Of a DNA stretch of 62,000 nucleotides, positions 12,831-22,689 are shown one piece after another. Below the pieces are notes generated by a model. The model searched no databases and was not told the DNA's origin. It was given only the letters and a program-made list of their open reading frames with translations. Made by a program: the position numbers and the translations under genes. How positions within the stretch are numbered: the first letter of the stretch is position 1; every line of letters starts with the position of its first letter. The DNA is taken from contig NC_086108.1 of the NCBI RefSeq assembly GCF_963921235.1, forward strand, positions 26,536,001-26,598,000, read 5' to 3'. This DNA comes from Mobula hypostoma (lineage: Eukaryota).

Positions 12831-14540
12831 ACAGGCGAACTGTTTGCATAACTAGAAACTAGTGCCCTGATCCAATAACCAAGACAGAGATGTGGCTGCC
12901 AAGTGAGCGAAGCTGAAAATGTAAGTGTTCTGTGATGTACTTCAGTTTGGTTGGATACCCAGTGATGAAGAGGGGAGAGGTTAGTCTGATTAGTAAAGAT
13001 AAGATCAGTGCAGATACTGTTTCGGATTAGATTATTGTGACATATGCCAAGATGCAATGAGATTCCTTGCCTGTGAAGCTCAGAGCATAAATATTATCCA
13101 TGGTAGTATTAAATACAGCAACAAGTGCAAAACCAGAGAATGGGGTAAAGATAGTCGTGCAATCTGAAGGAGTGCAAAAATAAATGCTGAAGTGACAGTG
13201 ACAGAATAATCAGGAGTTCAGCAGTAGAAAATATCCTTAGATCAGAAATACCATACCATAGAATTAAAAAACTGAAATGTAAAGAAAGAGGGTTTGCATG
13301 TCAATATTTGGCATACTGCAGAAGTGTACGGTCTTTCTAAACAAGGTGGGATATACCTGTAATGGAGACATTTGAATGAAAATATACTGCTTTAAGACAA
13401 GAGCAATGATTGAGTAGAATGGCTTTACCTTCATTGGAGTTGAGTAGGAGGTGGTTTTTACTGAAGAATTACATTCTGAAGGGGCATATCATCGATGATG
13501 AGTGTGAGGAATTGAAGATTGGCATGGACCAATTGAGTTGTAGGGTGTGTTTCTGTGCTGTGTGACTCTATGAATGCATGATGCGAATGAGAGTTGAAAA
13601 AAGTGAGATTTGTGAAGGATTAGTGTAAATGGCTGGTTAATGGTCAATGCAAACTCATGAGCCAATGGGCATGCTTCCATGCTGTGTCATTCCAAGTTTC
13701 ATTTATTTATGTAAGCAATAAATCTCAGGGAGACCTTGATTAACGTTTGGAGGACTGTTCAGGAAGAAGGTTGAATGTTGTGGTTTACACAGATCACTTT
13801 CAGAGTTAAGTACAGAAGCTTGTCAATTTGTTGATCACTTAGATCTTGCATATTTTCTGAAATATGCCCTGAAACTCACAACTACTTGGTAAATGTGTGG
13901 AACCATTTTGCTTAGATAATAAGCAGAGTTAAGTATTTATATAAAATGTTCTCAGGAAGCTAATCAAATAAAGATGCCAGGTGTGTCTTCCGAGAGAAAA
14001 CTTACAGACATTCTTTCCAAAATAATCTCATTAGAGAAGAATCTTCCCTCCATTACAAAACTAACAGCAATTCAATTCTTTGCCACTTTTAACAAAGCAG
14101 AAAGTGCCTCAAAGCACCTCACAGGAGCATTTTGAAGCTGAAGAGATTGACACCAAAGCAATTCAAATGACATTAGGGCCGATTGCCAATGGTTATAAAG
14201 TGATGTCTTAAGAATTCAAAAGTCAATAAAAATGCAAGAAATCCGAAAGGAAGAAAAAACTAACTAAGAAGGTTGGGTCAGGCAGCATCTGTGGAGAGAG
14301 GAAATGGGCAAATGATCAGGTCAAAGATCTGAAACATTAATTCTGAGCTTAGAAATCCTGCATGTTTTACTTTTCAAACAATACATTTTATGTTGTACAC
14401 AAATCACTGAATCTTAACATACCTGGCAGTTAAGAAGGTAAAGAGTAAACATAGAAACATAGAAAATAGGTGCAGGAGTAGGCCATTCGGCCCTTCGAGC
14501 CTGCACCGCCATTTATTATGATCATGGCTGATCATCCAAC

Positions 14541-17540
14541 TCAGAACCCAGCCTTCCCTCCATACCCCCTGACCCCTGTAGCCACAAGGGCCATATCTAA
14601 CTTCCTTTTAAACATAGCTAATGAACTGGCCTCAACAGTTTGCTGTGGCAGAGAATTCCACAGATTCACCACTCTCTGTGTGAAGAAGTTTTTCCTAACC
14701 TCGGTCCTAAAAGGCTTCCCCTCGATCCTCAAACTGTGACCCCTCGTTCTAGACCTCCCCAACATCGGGAACAATCTTCCCGCATCTAGCCTGTCCAATC
14801 CCTTTAGGATCTTATACGTTTCAATCAGATCCCCCCTCAATCTTCTAAATTCCAACGAGTACAAGACCAGTTCATCCAGTCTTTCTTCATATGAAAGACC
14901 TGCCATCCCAGGAATCAATCTGGTGAACCTTCTTTGTACTCCCTCTATGGCAAAGATGTCTTTCCTCAGATTAGGGGACCAAAACTGCACACAATACTCC
15001 AGGTGTGGTCTCACCAATGCCTTGTACAACTGCAGTAGTACCTCCCTGCTCCTGTACTCGAATCCTCTCGCTATAAATGCCAGCATACCGTTCGCCTTTT
15101 TCACCGCCTGCTGTACCTGCATGCCCACTTTCAATGACTGGTGTATAATGACACCCAGGTCTCGTTGCACCTCCCCTTTTCCTAATCGGCCACCATTCAG
15201 ATAATAATCTGTTTTCCTATTTTTGCCACCAAAGTGGATAACTTCACATTTATCCACATTAAATTGCATCTGCCATGAGTTTGCCCACTCACCCAACCTA
15301 TCCAAGTCACCCTGCATCCTTTTAGCATCCTCCTCACTGCTAACACTGCCACCCAGCTTTGTGTCATCCGCAAACTTGGAGATGTTGCATTTAATTCCCT
15401 CATCCATGTCATTAATATATATTGTAAACAACTGGGGTCCCAGCACTGAGCCTTGCGGTACCCCACTAGTCACCGCCTGCCATTCTGAAAAGGTCCCGTT
15501 TATTCCCACTCTTTGCTTCCTGTCTGCTAACCAATTCTCCACCCACACCAATACCTTACCCCCAATACCGTGTGCTTTAAGTTTGCACACTAATCTCCTG
15601 TGTGGGACCTTGTCAAAAGCCTTTTGAAAATCCAAATATACCACATCCACTGGTTTTCCCCTATCCACTCTACTAGTTACATCCTCAAAAAATTCTATGA
15701 GATTCGTCAGACATGATTTTCCTTTCACAAATCCATGCTGACTTTGTCCGATCATTTCACCGCTTTCCAAATGTGCTGTTATCACATCCTTGATAACTGA
15801 CTCCAGCAGTTTCCCCACCACCGACGTTAGGCTAACCGGCCTATAATTCCCCGGTTTCTCTCTCCCTCCTTTTTTAAAAAGTGGGGTTACATTAGCCACC
15901 CTCCAATCCTCAGGAACTAGTCCAGAATCTAACGAGTTTTGAAAAATTATCACTAATGCATCCACTATTTCTTGGGCCACTTCCTTAAGCACTCTGGGAT
16001 GCAGACCATCTGGCCCTGGGGATTTATCTGCCTTCAATCCCTTCAATTTACCTAACACCACTTCCCTACTAACATGTATTTCGCTCAGTTCCTCCATCTC
16101 ACTGGACCCTCTGTCCCTTACTATTTCTGGAAGATTATTTATGTCCTCCTTAGTGAAGACAGAACCAAAGTAATTATTCAATTGGTCTGCCATGTCCTTG
16201 CTCCCCATAATCAATTCACCTGTTTCTGTTTGCAGGGGACCTACATTTGTCTTTATCAGTCTTTTCCTTTTTACATATCTATAAAAGCTTTTACAGTCCG
16301 TTTTTATGTTCTCTGCCAGTTTTCTCTCATAATCTTTTTTCCCCTTCCTAATTAAGCCCTTTGTCCTCCTCTGCTGAACTCTGAATTTCTCCCAGTCCTC
16401 AGGTGAGCCACTTTCTCTGGCTAATTTGTATGCTACTTCTTTGGAATTGATACTATCCCTAATTTCTCTTGTCAGCCACGGGTGCACTACCTTCCTTGAT
16501 TTATTCTTTTGCCAAACTGAGATGAACAATTGTTGTAGTTCATCCATGCAACCTTTAAATGCCTGCCATTGCATATCCACCGTCAATCCTTGAAGTGTCA
16601 TTTGCCAGTCTATCTTAGCTAATTCACGTCTCATACCTTCAAAGTTACCCCTCTTTAAGTTCAGAACCTTTGTTTCTGAATTAACTACGTCACTCTCCAT
16701 GTTAATGAAGAATTCCACCATATTATGGTCACTCTTACCCAAGGGGCCTCTCACGACAAGATCGCTAATTAACCCTTCCTCATTGCTCAAAACCCAGTCC
16801 AGAATAGCCTGCTCTCTAGTCGGTTCCTCGACATGTTGGTTCAAAAAACCATCCCGCATACATTCCAAGAAATCCTCTTCCTCAGCACCTTTACCAATTT
16901 GGTTCACCCAGTCTACATGTAGATTGAAGTCACCCATTATAACTGCTGTTCCTTTATTGCACACATTTCTAATTTCCTGTTTAATACCATCTCCGACCTC
17001 ACTACTACTGTTAGGTGGCCTGTACACAACTCCCACCAGCGTCTTCTGCCCCTTAGTGTTACGCAGCTCTACCCATATCGATTCCACATCTTCCCGGCTT
17101 ATGTCCTTCCTTTCTATTGCGTTAATCTCTTTTTTAACCAGCAATGCTACCCCACCTCCCCTTCCTTCATGTCTATCCCTCCTGAATATTGAATATCCCT
17201 GAACGTTGAGCTCCCATCCCTGGTCACCCTGGAGCCATGTCTCTGTGATCCCAACTATATCATAATCATTAATAACAATCTGCACTTTCAATTCATCCAC
17301 CTTATTACGAATACTCCTTGCATTGACACATAAAGCCTTCAGGCGCTCTTTTACAACTCTCTTAGCCCTTTTTAATGCTTGCCCTGGATTTGTCGGCCTG
17401 CCACTTTTACTTTTCCCCTTTGTACTGTTTGCTTCTACGCTCACTTTACACCCCTCTGTCTCTCTGCACTGATTCCCATCCCTCTGTTGTGAACTAACCT
17501 CCTCACACCTAGCCGCTTTAATTTGATTCCCACCCCCCAA
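14541..17540 (-). CDS. CR1 ORF2: APE endonuclease + reverse transcriptase
   Basis: 999-codon open frame with NARS, ITETWL, YRPP, GDFN and SDHN (endonuclease) and KSPGPDG, YRPVSLTS, DFQKAFD, PQGSVLGP and FADD (RT). The called start is TTG; the frame is open from 17561. Confidence 0.97.
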   Translation of the reverse strand: MGGGNQIKAARCEEVSSQQRDGNQCRETEGCKVSVEANSTKGKSKSGRPTNPGQALKRAKRVVKERLKALCVNARSIRNKVDELKVQIVINDYDIVGITETWLQGDQGWELNVQGYSIFRRDRHEGRGGGVALLVKKEINAIERKDISREDVESIWVELRNTKGQKTLVGVVYRPPNSSSEVGDGIKQEIRNVCNKGTAVIMGDFNLHVDWVNQIGKGAEEEDFLECMRDGFLNQHVEEPTREQAILDWVLSNEEGLISDLVVRGPLGKSDHNMVEFFINMESDVVNSETKVLNLKRGNFEGMRRELAKIDWQMTLQGLTVDMQWQAFKGCMDELQQLFISVWQKNKSRKVVHPWLTREIRDSINSKEVAYKLARESGSPEDWEKFRVQQRRTKGLIRKGKKDYERKLAENIKTDCKSFYRYVKRKRLIKTNVGPLQTETGELIMGSKDMADQLNNYFGSVFTKEDINNLPEIVRDRGSSEMEELSEIHVSREVVLGKLKGLKADKSPGPDGLHPRVLKEVAQEIVDALVIIFQNSLDSGLVPEDWRVANVTPLFKKGGREKPGNYRPVSLTSVVGKLLESVIKDVITAHLESGEMIGQSQHGFVKGKSCLTNLIEFFEDVTSRVDRGKPVDVVYLDFQKAFDKVPHRRLVCKLKAHGIGGKVLVWVENWLADRKQRVGINGTFSEWQAVTSGVPQGSVLGPQLFTIYINDMDEGIKCNISKFADDTKLGGSVSSEEDAKRMQGDLDRLGEWANSWQMQFNVDKCEVIHFGGKNRKTDYYLNGGRLGKGEVQRDLGVIIHQSLKVGMQVQQAVKKANGMLAFIARGFEYRSREVLLQLYKALVRPHLEYCVQFWSPNLRKDIFAIEGVQRRFTRLIPGMAGLSYEERLDELVLYSLEFRRLRGDLIETYKILKGLDRLDAGRLFPMLGRSRTRGHSLRIEGKPFRTEVRKNFFTQRVVNLWNSLPQQTVEASSLAMFKRKLDMALVATGVRGYGGKAGF

Positions 17541-17545
17541 CCATT

Positions 17546-18481
17546 CTAGTTTAAAGTCACCTCAGTAGCCCCCACTAATCTCCCTGCCAGGATATTGGTC
17601 CCCCTAGGATTTAAGTGTAACCCGTCCTTTTTGTACAGGTCACACCTGCGCCAAAAGAGGTCCCAATGATCCAAAAACTTGAATCCCTGCCCCCTGCTCC
17701 AATCCCTCAGCCACGCATTTATCCTCCACCTCATCGCATTCCTACTCTCACTGTCGCGTGGCACAGGCAGTAATCCCGAGATTACTACCTTTGCGGTCCT
17801 TTTTCTCAACTCCCTTCCTAGCTCCCTATATTCTTCTTTCAGGACCTCATCCCTTTTCCTACCTATGTCATTGGTACCTATATGTACCAGGACCTCTGGC
17901 TCTTCACCCTCCCACTTCAGGATATCTTGGACACGATCAGAAATATCCCGGACCCTGGCACCAGGGAGGCAAACTACCATCCGAGTCTCTGGACTGCGTC
18001 CACAGAATCGCCTATCTGACCCCCTTACTATCGAGTCCCCTATCACAACTGCCCTCCTCTTCCTTGCCCTACCCTTCTGAGCTACAGGGCCAGACTCTGT
18101 GCCGGAGGCAGGGCCACTGTCGCTTCCCCCGGGTAAGCTGTCCCCCCCAACAGTACTCAAACAGGAGTACCTGTTGTTAAGGGGCACAGCCGCCGGGGTA
18201 CTCCCCATCACCTGCCTTTTCCCCTTCCCCCTCCTAACCGTGACCCACTTGTCTGCCTCCCGTGGCCCCGGCGTGACCACCTGCCTTCCACTCCTCTCTA
18301 TCACCTCCTCGCTCTCCCTGACCAGACGAAGGTCATCAAGCTGCAGCTCCAGTTCCGTAACGCGGTCCCTTAGGAGCTGCATCTCGATGCACCTGGCGCA
18401 GATGTAGACGTCCGGGAGGCTTGGAGACTCCAGGGCCTCCCACATCCGACACCGAGAACAGCAAACTGCCCTCACAGTCAT
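17546..18481 (-). CDS. CR1 ORF1p: zinc finger/leucine zipper + SGNH esterase domain (311 aa from first ATG)
   Basis: CxxC...CxxC, heptad leucine repeat, IGDSIVR, HIGTND and DGLH esterase blocks. Confidence 0.95.
   Translation of the reverse strand: MTVRAVCCSRCRMWEALESPSLPDVYICARCIEMQLLRDRVTELELQLDDLRLVRESEEVIERSGRQVVTPGPREADKWVTVRRGKGKRQVMGSTPAAVPLNNRYSCLSTVGGDSLPGGSDSGPASGTESGPVAQKGRARKRRAVVIGDSIVRGSDRRFCGRSPETRMVVCLPGARVRDISDRVQDILKWEGEEPEVLVHIGTNDIGRKRDEVLKEEYRELGRELRKRTAKVVISGLLPVPRDSESRNAMRWRINAWLRDWSRGQGFKFLDHWDLFWRRCDLYKKDGLHLNPRGTNILAGRLVGATEVTLN
17549..17555 (-). promoter_or_regulatory. Candidate -1 ribosomal frameshift heptamer U_UUA_AAC at the CR1 ORF1/ORF2 junction
   Basis: Minus strand reads ACT TTA AAC TAG in the ORF1 frame. 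A -1 slip gives TTT AAA CTA GAA TGG TTG, which is the ORF2 frame. Confidence 0.65.
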
Positions 18482-18643
18482 AATGCCCCTCTCCTCAAAT
18501 AGCAACAGAAAATGAATGTCAAACCTTCCTCGCCTCGCCCGCTTCCGCCTAAGCCCGTTGAGCCGAAGCCCTTAAGTCTTCACTCTGCTCCCGGCTCACT
18601 CCGCTGCCCGCAAACTACGCTGCCCGCTCTCTGAGGCTCTGTT

Positions 18644-18881
18644 CCTTTTAAATCTGCCGCGCTGCACTGCCCGACGTCACACGCCTGCGCAGTCCCGCCT
18701 CTCAGAAAGCCGTTGGAGAAAAAAAATAACGAAAATTTCAAAAATCTCTTTCTCGGCACTCCCACTCAGACTCTCAGACTCCTTCTTCGAATCAAATCCG
18801 AAGCAGGATGTCTGCCCTTTTAAATCTGCTGCGCTGCACTGCCCGACGTCACACGCCTGCGCAGTCCCGCCTCTCAGAAAG
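18644..18881 (-). promoter_or_regulatory. Duplicated 66-bp promoter-like module in the CR1 5' UTR
   Basis: 18644-18709 and 18816-18881 differ at one base. Each contains GGCGGG, TGCGCAGGCG, TGACGTC and TTTAAAAGG on the - strand. Confidence 0.65.
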
Positions 18882-18889
18882 TAGAGTTA

Positions 18890-20700
18890 GAGAGTAGAGT
18901 CATAAGGCACTGTTGCACAGAAACAGGGCCTCTGGCCTTTCTAGTCTATGTTGAACTGTTATTCTTCCTAATCCCATCAACCTACACCTGGACCATACAC
19001 CTCCATACCCCTCCCATTCATGTACTTACCCCAACTTCTCTTTAATGTTGCAGTCAAACCCACATCCACCACTTCTTCTGGCAGCTCGTTCCACACTCGC
19101 AATATTTGTGTCATACGCAAACTTGCTAATCTAGTTAACCAAATTATCATCCAGATTGTTGATATAGATGACAAACAACAACTGACCCAGCACTGATCCC
19201 TGTGCCACTCCGCTATTCATAAGCCTCCAATCAGAGAGGCAAAGTTCACTACTGAAGGCTGCCCACTTACCAAGTACACTTTTGCCAGAAAATATTCAGT
19301 CCCAATCCACACTCGCCAGATCTTTCCTGATACCATCAAAGTTAACTTTTCTCCAATTTAGAAGCTCAGCCTGCAGACAGGACCTATCTATTGGCATATT
19401 TACTTTGAAACTAATGGCATTCTGATTACTAAATGCAAAGTGTTCCCCTGAACAAACTTCTGTCACGTCCCCTGTCTCATTACTTAATAGCAGATCAAGT
19501 ATTGCACACTGTCTCATGGGGACTGCTGCGTACTGATTAAGGAAACTTTCCTGAGCACATTTACAAATTCTATCCCACCCGGGCATTTTACAGTACAGTA
19601 AAAGGACTAGTCTCTCGTTCTAGTCTCAGACGACATCAGTGGAAGAAGCCTACTTGCATTAACCCTATTTATGCCCTTCATAATTTTGTATACCTCTGTC
19701 AAATCTCCCCTCATTTTCCTAAAGGAATGTGACCAAAACTGCACGCGGTATTCCAAATCTGGCGTCTCTAAGGTCTTATACAACTTCAACATAACATTCC
19801 AACTCCTGAATTTAATACTTAGATTTATGAAGGCCAGTGTGCCAAAACGTCTGTTTATGACCTGATCTACCTGTCACAGCACTTTAAAGGAATAATGGAT
19901 ATGTATTCCTAAATCCCTCTTTTCCACAACACTTCTCTGTGCCCTACCATTCGCTGTGTGAGTTCTATTCTGGTTTGTCCTCCCAAAATGCTGTACCTCA
20001 CAGTTGTCTGCATAAAATTCCATCTGCTTCTTTTCAACACATTTTTCCAGCTGGTCCAAATCTCACTGCAAGCTTTGATAGACTTTCTTACTGTCCACTA
20101 ACACACCCCCCCCCCCCCAAATCTTGGTGTCATCTTCAAATTTGCTGATCCAGTTAATCACATCATCATCCAGATGGGTGATATACTGCAGACGACAAAC
20201 AGCGATGGATCCAGCACCATTCCTGTGGCACTCCACTAGCCACAGACCTCCAGTCAGATGCACAACCATCTACAACCATTTTCATGCTTCTCTCATAAAG
20301 CCAATGAAGAATCGGCTTCATAACTCATCCTGAATACCAAGTGACTGAATTATCTTATCCAGCCTCCTATGTGAGACTTTGTCAAAGGCCTTGCTAAAGT
20401 CCATGTAGACAACATCCACTGCCTTTCTTTCTTCAACTGTCCTGGTAACCCCTCGAAAACTCCATAAGATTGGTTTGTCCTTTGATAATAAATTTATTTT
20501 GAATTTGAATATGAACAAAGCCACGTTGACTATCTCTAATCAGTTGTGTCTATCCAAATGCTTATATTTCTGGTCCCTTAGAATATTTTCCAATAATTTG
20601 CTCACTACTGATGTCAGACTCACCCACCTGTAATTTCCTGGCTTATCCTTTGAGCCTTTCTTAAACAGCAGCTATCCTCCAGTTCTCCAGCATTAGACTT
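18890..20700 (-). mobile_element. Cluster of decayed CR1 ORF2 fragments
   Basis: ORF-track peptides AVDVVYMDFSKAFDKV, KLYKTL..LEYRVQFWS, ISKFEDDTK and AILDLLLSNE. Confidence 0.8.
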
Positions 20701-22003: not shown

Positions 22004-22689
22004 GTCAGTACAGGTGCGGCTGCTAAATTTCTCCTTTTATCCCTGTAGCAGTTGATGTGCACTGTCCCTTATTCCCTTATGACTAGTTGCAGTGGCTGGA
22101 GCCTTCTTCAATTATTCATGCTTAAAACTGGCTGTTGCGTGACTTAATATTATTCCTATAATATCAGCAGCAACTGCTGGAGTCCCCATGTATAACCATG
22201 AATAATTCAGGGACTCATAAGATATATTAAAATACTAGAAGTGCAGGATTATAACAATACAATGTGTATCTGAGTAGCACAATTACAGGAAACTCATGCT
22301 TTGATTAATTTCTGTACTGTTACTTTCTGCTTGCGATTTCTAGAGCAAATGTGCCCTCAGTTGCACCCATTTTGTTTTTTTCATGATCTTACTAAAAGTC
22401 ACTGCACACCTGTGAGTCAATCATGAGCCATTGTAATGTAAAATTTTGAATACATTTTAGTTTTTAAACATGCCCTCCATACAAAAGAAGCTGCCAACTT
22501 GACGGCTTGGAACCAAGCTAATCAAGAAAACTTAATATTTTCAAACACACTACCAACCAAATTCCAATCAGCAAAATGATTTAAACTAGAAAAGGTATAT
22601 GAAGGCATATTTATTGGTTTATTAGTAAGTTAAAATATAGTATAATAGAAGCATTTAAAAACACATTTTTGTTGCATCTTAGCACAACC

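Follow-up and report, generated by a model that had tools for sequence, protein, structure and literature searches.

In a 62,000-nucleotide (nt) stretch of the genome of Mobula hypostoma (contig NC_086108.1, positions 26,536,001 to 26,598,000 of the forward strand; hereafter the window), a full-length long interspersed nuclear element (LINE) was found on the minus strand, extending from ~18890 to 14446 of the window. Both of its open reading frames (ORFs), ORF1 and ORF2, are open in this copy. We propose that ORF2 is reached by a programmed −1 ribosomal frameshift at the end of ORF1, which would yield an ORF1-ORF2 fusion of 1313 amino acids (aa) in the style of Gag-Pol; we put the probability of this reading at roughly 0.78. 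The putative signal is a conserved block, UUUAAAC-UAR-N7-GGGGG, which recurs in distantly related elements of the CR1 type. The features around the junction are as follows.

17546..18481, minus strand: ORF1, with its ATG at 18481 and its TAG at 17548-17546, 311 aa.
14541..17561, minus strand: ORF2 frame, 1006 codons from stop to stop, consisting of a linker, an apurinic-type endonuclease, and a reverse transcriptase (RT).
17562..17564, minus strand: TGA closing the −1 frame of ORF2; it lies 6 nt 5' of the heptamer.
17549..17555, minus strand: slippery heptamer T_TTA_AAC (U_UUA_AAC), formed by the last two sense codons of ORF1 and the third base of the codon before.
17546..17548, minus strand: ORF1 stop TAG, directly 3' of the heptamer.
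17533..17538, minus strand: G6 tract, the candidate stimulator; the conserved G5 comprises the first five of these G (17538-17534), and T and GGG follow (17532-17529).

The 3' end of ORF1 reads GTG ACT TTA AAC TAG, and TTTAAAC (17555-17549) is placed in X_XXY_YYZ phase. Relative to ORF1, ORF2 is read in the −1 frame, which opens at 17561 and gives an overlap of 16 nt; because of the TGA at 17564-17562, any change of frame is confined to the last 16 nt of ORF1. An in-frame ATG is first encountered in ORF2 at codon 209 (TAVIMGDFNL), within the endonuclease domain, and none occurs in the 208 codons before it. The original prediction, made from the letters of this one copy, had described an in-phase heptamer at the end of ORF1, a −1 frame opening after a TGA with a 16-nt overlap, and the lack of an ORF2 AUG before AVIMGDFN; reading of the minus strand bore out all of these. 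XXXYYYZ heptamers occupy 1 of the 309 in-phase positions of ORF1 and 2 of the 1004 of ORF2, and by our own estimate the chance of finding one in the approximately three eligible positions of the overlap is below 1%. Three of the features by which a −1 frameshift site is recognized were found together, namely, a heptamer in phase, a long start-less −1 ORF across it, and conservation beyond coding need, as described below. One base past the ORF1 stop, an ATG opens a third-frame ORF of eight codons (17545-17519, minus strand; ATG GTT GGG GGG TGG GAA TCA AAT TAA), which spans the G tract and is not conserved in other lineages. Further matches of TTTAAACTAG in the window, at 22580 and 61469, were rejected as AT-rich chance matches without LINE context.

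The end of the ORF1 protein (ORF1p) was compared among its homologues. A search with ORF1p gave 161 matches, and counts were made over the best 120, which are the ones listed and provide the fair figure. The C-terminus was -LN in 84 of the 120. By a motif criterion, 87 homologues reach the C-terminal tail, and 78 of these end in -LN, with six further -LN endings outside the criterion. The named sources included rays, skates, sharks, sawfish, coelacanth, frogs, turtles, lizards, a snake, and a hummingbird. In an alignment of 38 sequences picked as full-length matches (each 30-84% identical to the protein of the window), L310 and N311 were invariant and the preceding tail varied. The residue before LN (n = 84) was G in 25, A in 20, T in 11, S in 10, C in 6, Y in 5, D in 3, E in 2, and F and I in 1 each; E (30), R (27), and Q (6) predominated at the second residue before LN. 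A codon ending in U is possible for the residue before LN in 82 of 84 cases, the pattern that a required U before UUA-AAC would predict. An independent profile search (1.84 billion representatives; 150 listed) was in agreement: 45 of the listed sequences extend to the final profile position, 44 of them with an -LN ending.

Among 62 esterase-ORF1 representatives with divergent tails, 13 end in -LN, 10 in -GN (mostly -QGN; P0116, P0181, P0194, P0197, P0200, P0208, P0216, P0249, P0178, and P0239), and 2 in -KN (P0196 and P0236). U_UUA_AAC, G_GGA_AAC, and A_AAA_AAC encode the dipeptides LN, GN, and KN, respectively. These endings suggest that sister lineages may use G_GGA_AAC and A_AAA_AAC in the same way, a prediction from protein endings alone. 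The GGGAAAC form of the motif was not enriched in the M. hypostoma genome (17 occurrences versus 61 for the control).

Conservation was also evaluated in DNA, using loci selected by protein similarity and not by the motif. A metagenome scan with the ORF1p alignment as the query gave 42 loci with 25-39% ORF1p identity, and an in-frame stop past the ORF1 match could be located in 20 of them. ORF1 ended exactly in TTTAAAC followed by TAG (TAA in L058) in 12 of the 20. GTTAAAC stood in place of TTTAAAC in one (L037), and three decayed loci (L031, L060, and L065) retained TTTAAAC displaced from the frame. The remaining four were without TTTAAAC, and in two of these (L059 and L069) the match stops short of the C-terminus. 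Two further CR1 families were found in the M. hypostoma genome by using diverged proteins as queries. In the P0014-like family, TTTAAAC-TAA was present in 11 of 15 loci; in the older P0056-like family, TTTAAAC-stop was present in 7 of 15 loci, and 5 more were off by 1 or 2 bases. The stop always follows the heptamer without a gap, as TAG in some of the examined lineages and as TAA in others. Codon use pooled over 12 ORF1s (TTA, 14% of Leu; AAC, 34% of Asn; NNT, 24% of all codons) indicates that, given the peptide x-L-N, xxT-TTA-AAC is expected by chance in ~1% of lineages. The choice of codons in the heptamer thus goes beyond what the peptide needs, and the constraint therefore acts on RNA. 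Throughout the M. hypostoma genome, TTTAAACTAR-N7-GGGGG occurred 22,141 times versus 8 times for a reversed control. Judged from these comparisons, the strongest sign against chance is the recurrence of the same letters in distant relatives. The original prediction had proposed conservation across vertebrate CR1 consensus sequences as a check, and the heptamer, its phase, and the adjacent stop were indeed kept, both in the proteins and in the DNA of other families.

The G tract downstream of the stop was conserved as well. G5 starts 10 nt past the heptamer and 7 bases past the stop, at positions +8 to +12. Of the 11 metagenome junctions that extend downstream, 10 had it at exactly these positions, the exception being L068 with GTGGGG; so did the two additional families of the same genome and the window. 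The seven bases between the stop and G5 were variable; one table of downstream sequences used motif-picked loci and is illustrative only. Since G5 fixes the third positions of two ORF2-frame codons, the constraint is again one at the level of RNA. The G5 tract is likely to be the stimulator of the candidate signal. A longer G-rich run, GGTTGGGGGGTGGG, had previously been singled out for its start 6 nt past the heptamer; the start is as described, but the initial GG of the run is not conserved, and the conserved part is the G5/G6 at 17538-17533, 10 nt past the heptamer. Two further roles for the tract were considered and rejected. A canonical G-quadruplex is not conserved: none of 12 lineages showed the three-tier pattern, and four, including the window, showed the two-tier one. 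A long-range pairing partner is not obvious either, as the element RNA is 32% G and 15% C, and no run of C exceeds four.

The relation of the two frames was examined in the other lineages. Wherever the ORF2 frame runs on unbroken from the junction, it is −1 in every case. This frame opens before the end of ORF1 by 16 nt in the window and in five P0014-like copies, by 13 nt in two P0056-like copies, and by 16-121 nt in seven metagenome lineages (L032, L034, L035, L038, L041, L042, and L058). The triplet after CUA-Gnn was variable (TGG, GTG, ATG, TCG, or AGT). A conserved in-frame AUG near the junction, which the original prediction had named as grounds for abandoning its proposal, did not emerge: an ORF2-frame ATG just past the stop (within 6 nt) was seen in L035 and L041 only.

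The junction was also examined in close copies of the element. With a 301-nt junction as the query, at least 1394 first-look candidates were obtained in the host genome (3.48 Gb in 200 contigs), and the best 40, which were scored, were all 99-100% identical. The junction, heptamer included, was identical in 30 of 30 near-identical genomic copies that were fetched. The copies are the imprint of recent activity of a master with exactly this junction, and they are uninformative on selection because they are too young to have diverged. In contigs from four other runs with at least 80% likeness, no variant reached 10% within 17546-17555 and no junction indel was present; variation was observed at 17559, 17562, 17522, 17519, and 17515. 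These contigs are related copies of uncertain kind, which makes them weak support and leaves them silent on expression, starts, and slippage. No RNA run was among those listed as carrying the sequence.

From the anatomy of the junction and its conservation at the nucleotide level, we infer a slip that would produce a fusion protein at low stoichiometry, with a role for the G tract. Most ribosomes on ORF1 would stop at UAG, setting free an ORF1 protein of esterase type, whereas a minority would slip back one base on U_UUA_AAC and then read CUA GAA UGG ... through ORF2. The slip may take place by tandem slippage, or by slippage in the P site while the adjacent stop occupies the A site. Because the stop is always adjacent, slow decoding of UAR may contribute, with the Asn tRNA in the P site slipping from AAC to AAA and giving the same product. 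The fusion would carry the joint ...EVTLN-LEWLGGG..., comprise 1313 aa, and be analogous to Gag-Pol. The ~1313-aa fusion in gag-pol style put forward in the original prediction agrees in length with the predicted product and is supported by the conservation of the signal; a structured stimulator was not seen in the nested folds, and the fusion product stays a prediction from the letters. Fusion proteins are plausible in this superfamily, since Metcalfe and Casane (PMC4120745) describe CR1 and L2 subgroups with ORF1-type domains at the 5' end either of ORF2 or of the sole ORF.

The G5 tract 10 nt downstream probably serves as a site for a protein or another trans-acting partner rather than as folded RNA; a trans-acting factor is favored because an unstructured G5 has the spacing of the protein-dependent signal of PRRSV (the virus that causes porcine reproductive and respiratory syndrome). 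That ORF1p itself binds the tract is pure conjecture. A bolder form of the proposal, which we regard as possible but doubtful, is that the CR1 endonuclease and RT are made only as a transframe fusion, through a structure-independent UUUAAAC-UAR-N7-GGGGG whose G5 is bound by a host protein or by ORF1p. If this were true and ORF1p were the binder, the ratio of ORF1p to fusion would adjust itself, and cis-preference would have a built-in basis.

Several observations weigh against frameshifting. A stable 3' RNA structure was not predicted: in nested folds of 116-117 nt, z was positive in 11 of 12 lineages, pseudoknots not being part of the search, and the stem-loop sought in the downstream fold that had been suggested as a check thus did not appear. 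The sole negative z was −2.19, in lineage L032, and the fold of the window over 137 nt from the heptamer gave z +0.8. At 10 nt, G5 lies farther off than the 5-9 nt that are classical for structured stimulators. Simple tandem slippage does not need a stop that is invariably adjacent, and this adjacency could indicate a termination-linked mechanism. In addition, 10 metagenome loci combine an in-frame TTTAAAC-stop with an ORF2 match, and in 3 of these (L036, L051, and L068) the endonuclease match was not in the −1 frame. A single G within the G run separates L051 from its relative L032, making a 1-nt indel likely, and the ORF2 frame of L036 and L068 is closed for ~100 nt past the junction; all three were taken as decayed copies. 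L035 and L041 carry their in-frame ATG directly after the stop, and four of five P0014-like copies with a continuous ORF2 frame have an in-frame ATG at +107 nt. Finally, a natural in-frame ORF1-ORF2 fusion was not found in a search for longer proteins, where the five matches were all chimeric or unrelated models, although this is weak evidence.

The main rival is termination-coupled reinitiation at a non-AUG codon, of the L1/SART1 type, which would give a separate ORF2 protein (ORF2p) and which we consider unlikely. Some 40S subunits would be retained after UAG, perhaps tethered by the G tract, and restart at, e.g., UUG, the eighth codon. The constant position of the stop at a conserved block, with a conserved G-rich element within 10 nt, agrees with such a mechanism, as does the ORF2-frame ATG within 6 nt of the stop in L035 and L041. 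The tract of the window and of the P0014-like family, GGGGG(G)-(A)UGGGA, also contains UGGGA, which we take to be the core of calicivirus reinitiation motifs. This UGGGA-like motif lies downstream of the stop, however, not upstream, and is absent from several lineages. According to two reviews, translation of ORF2 in SART1 and human L1 depends on translation of ORF1 and may be reinitiation (PMC2881922 and PMC3894237). Reinitiation leaves unexplained, however, why an exact in-phase heptamer, with TTA and with U before it, is kept across 25-40% protein identity. Moreover, the start codon is not conserved, and in the window family the ATG near the stop belongs to the third-frame, 8-codon ORF, with no ORF2-frame ATG there.

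It is also conceivable, but less probable than reinitiation, that the letters have a role other than recoding, either as an -LN motif of ORF1p lying over an F-K-L start of ORF2 or as an RNA or DNA site (for packaging, localization, or transcription), with ORF2 translated otherwise, e.g., from an internal entry site or by shunting. LINE RNAs carry cis-acting signals of poorly known nature, and L310 and N311 are invariant in the protein alignment, as such a motif would have them. Against this, the choice of codons is fixed past the need of the peptide, and U is kept before the Leu codon though the residue there varies among NNU-capable ones. The block, moreover, sits in the only window that permits a change from the ORF1 to the ORF2 frame, and the -GN (10) and -KN (2) endings match other X_XXA_AAC heptamers, for which a slippery-site rule accounts better than a peptide motif would. 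LINE copies are for the most part dead, and the earlier proposal drew on one copy, so that the junction could in principle be an accident of that copy, or its ORF2 could be unexpressed. We give this explanation hardly any weight: both ORFs are open, the best 40 copies are 99-100% identical with the same junction in 30 of 30, and the motif recurs in unrelated lineages, a reading by accident or decay being already contradicted. Programmed −1 frameshifting is, in our judgment, the reading that best accommodates the heptamer, its phase, and its conservation.

The remaining parts of the element support its classification. ORF1p consists of a Cys-rich N-terminus, a coiled-coil-like region, and an SGNH/GDSL esterase domain (Pfam PF13472, E = 3e-16, plus PF00657). 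The ORF2 domains were identified by Pfam as endonuclease (PF03372 and PF14529) and RT (PF00078). Among the matches listed, the closest named ORF1 proteins are from rays, the best being 98% identical. The untranslated regions (UTRs) are as follows.

14446..14540, minus strand: 3' UTR, with the octamer TTCTATGT twice at its end; a CR1-style tail without poly(A).
18482..18890, minus strand: 5' UTR, with a motif of ~65 nt in two copies, ~18884-18820 and ~18706-18642; the 5' boundary is approximate.

An octamer tail is given as a CR1 trait in PMC2612034, and the L2 elements of chondrichthyans are stated to be without ORF1 in PMC13343379. The element combines three characters of the CR1 clade, namely, an apurinic-type endonuclease with RT in ORF2, an SGNH-type ORF1, and an octamer 3' end. 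Because of its esterase ORF1, its endonuclease/RT ORF2, and its octamer tail, together with the named homologues and the statement on chondrichthyan L2 in PMC13343379, we assign it to the CR1-type LINEs.

The motif of the 5' UTR (tttctgagaggcgggactgcgcaggcgtgtgacgtcgggcagtgcagcgc.gcagatttaaaag) is present in two copies at 18642-18884, ~180 nt from start to start. These ~65-nt repeats may act as promoter monomers, comparable to 5' subunits that are repeated in some CR1-group elements. Directly upstream of the element, at 18900-19900 on the minus strand, are decayed RT-like frames of an older LINE (e.g., ORFs 19296-19619 and 19607-19873), and the young element was therefore placed in or beside an older LINE fragment. 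Elsewhere, locus L078 contains two TTTAAAC-stop-G5 junctions of different CR1 families, at 2558-2552 and 1507-1501 (minus strand), ~1 kb apart. It looks like a nested or adjacent insertion, and the second junction is that of a fourth family in this genome. A relative was not found in a scan of viral contigs, and a scan of genome contigs gave a sole match, L103, a bacterial SGNH hydrolase. Some of the ORF1p homologues are filed under other names. Five host-named gene models carry the LINE ORF1 esterase (P0026, P0064, P0065, P0121, and P0122), with names including hydroxyacid oxidase 2 isoform X1, 40S ribosomal protein S24 isoform X2, transmembrane protein 204 isoforms, and V-set immunoglobulin protein; these host-named models look like annotation chimeras. 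P0021 is listed as an SGNH/GDSL hydrolase of Pseudomonas aeruginosa, from a contig of 4159 nt. It shares 60% identity with ORF1p and has the -LN ending, and its probable origin is a vertebrate contaminant in a bacterial assembly.

CR1 LINEs are the dominant retrotransposons of most non-mammalian vertebrates, and the translation of LINE ORF2 is a long-standing open question. If the proposed frameshift is true, a very large share of vertebrate retrotransposons, from cartilaginous fish to birds, would use a Gag-Pol-like fusion. The low stoichiometry of ORF2 to ORF1 would be explained, and ORF2p would enter the ORF1p particle by covalent linkage. An unstructured G5 at 10 nt would, if necessary for the slip, be a new kind of cellular frameshift stimulator, and the signal, at less than 30 nt, would make a compact and portable cassette. 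For annotation, CR1 ORF2, at present given as a truncated or start-less ORF or merged into chimeric gene models, would be better modeled as the −1 transframe continuation of ORF1.

A CR1 frameshift signal was not found described in the literature searched, a result that leaves room for an earlier remark in older chicken or turtle CR1 papers (1997-2001) and likewise has no bearing on Kapitonov and Jurka 2003 or Kajikawa et al. 2012 (ZfL2-1 ORF1). Within the portions available, a CR1 frameshift is absent from PMC13343379, PMC4255032, PMC4120745, PMC3894237, PMC2734521, PMC3905857, PMC2881922, PMC11303007, PMC4176376, PMC3880073, and PMC5009743. As far as their available text goes, the reviews PMC2881922 and PMC3894237 give only reinitiation-type models for LINE ORF2 (L1 and SART1), with frameshifting unmentioned, and the recoding review PMC5009743 mentions elements without long terminal repeats (non-LTR elements) only for the Drosophila telomeric HeT-A and TART.

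The proposed signal can be compared with several known systems. The coronavirus 1a/1b site has the same heptamer in the same phase, and there, too, an upstream abundant protein is followed by a polymerase in the −1 frame, which is made as a fusion product. The deltaretrovirus pro-pol site also uses U_UUA_AAC, and these viral and retroviral sites require a pseudoknot or stem-loop at a distance of 5-9 nt downstream. CR1, in contrast, has an adjacent 0-frame stop, a bare G5 at 10 nt, and no stable structure in 11 of 12 lineages. In Rous sarcoma virus gag-pol, A_AAU_UUA lies directly before the gag UAG, and a downstream structured RNA is needed. The abutment of heptamer and stop and the Gag/Gag-Pol logic are shared with CR1, whereas the heptamer differs, and a LINE is without protease, so that its fusion would remain uncleaved.

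Among LINEs, human L1 and SART1 likewise have a bicistronic RNA, in which ORF2 depends on ORF1 translation according to PMC2881922 and PMC3894237. Those elements give a separate ORF2p, and in SART1 the AUG overlaps the stop (UAAUG), whereas CR1 has no conserved AUG, a −1 overlap of its ORFs, and a conserved slippery heptamer. The Dictyostelium LINEs TRE5-A and TRE3-A, of which ORF2 is stated to need a −1 frameshift (PMC5911963), are apurinic-type non-LTR elements like CR1 but differ in clade, host, and ORF1.

The nearest parallel for the stimulator is the −2/−1 signal of PRRSV nsp2, in which a C-rich motif ~10-11 nt downstream is bound by nsp1beta and PCBP, as described in PMC4937337. The spacing is 11 nt in the introduction of that paper, and the wild-type spacer is 10 nt in a figure legend; frameshifting is reported to work only with spacers of 9-11 nt, longer ones favoring −1 (PMC4937337). 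Both signals have a linear homopolymer-like motif ~10-11 nt 3' of the shift site and no downstream structure. The CR1 motif is G-rich, however, its heptamer is different, and it belongs to a cellular retrotransposon, so that the likeness is one of spacing and lack of structure only. Taken together, these comparisons suggest that CR1 may combine a classical heptamer, in a class of hosts in which it is unreported, with an unusual linear candidate stimulator.

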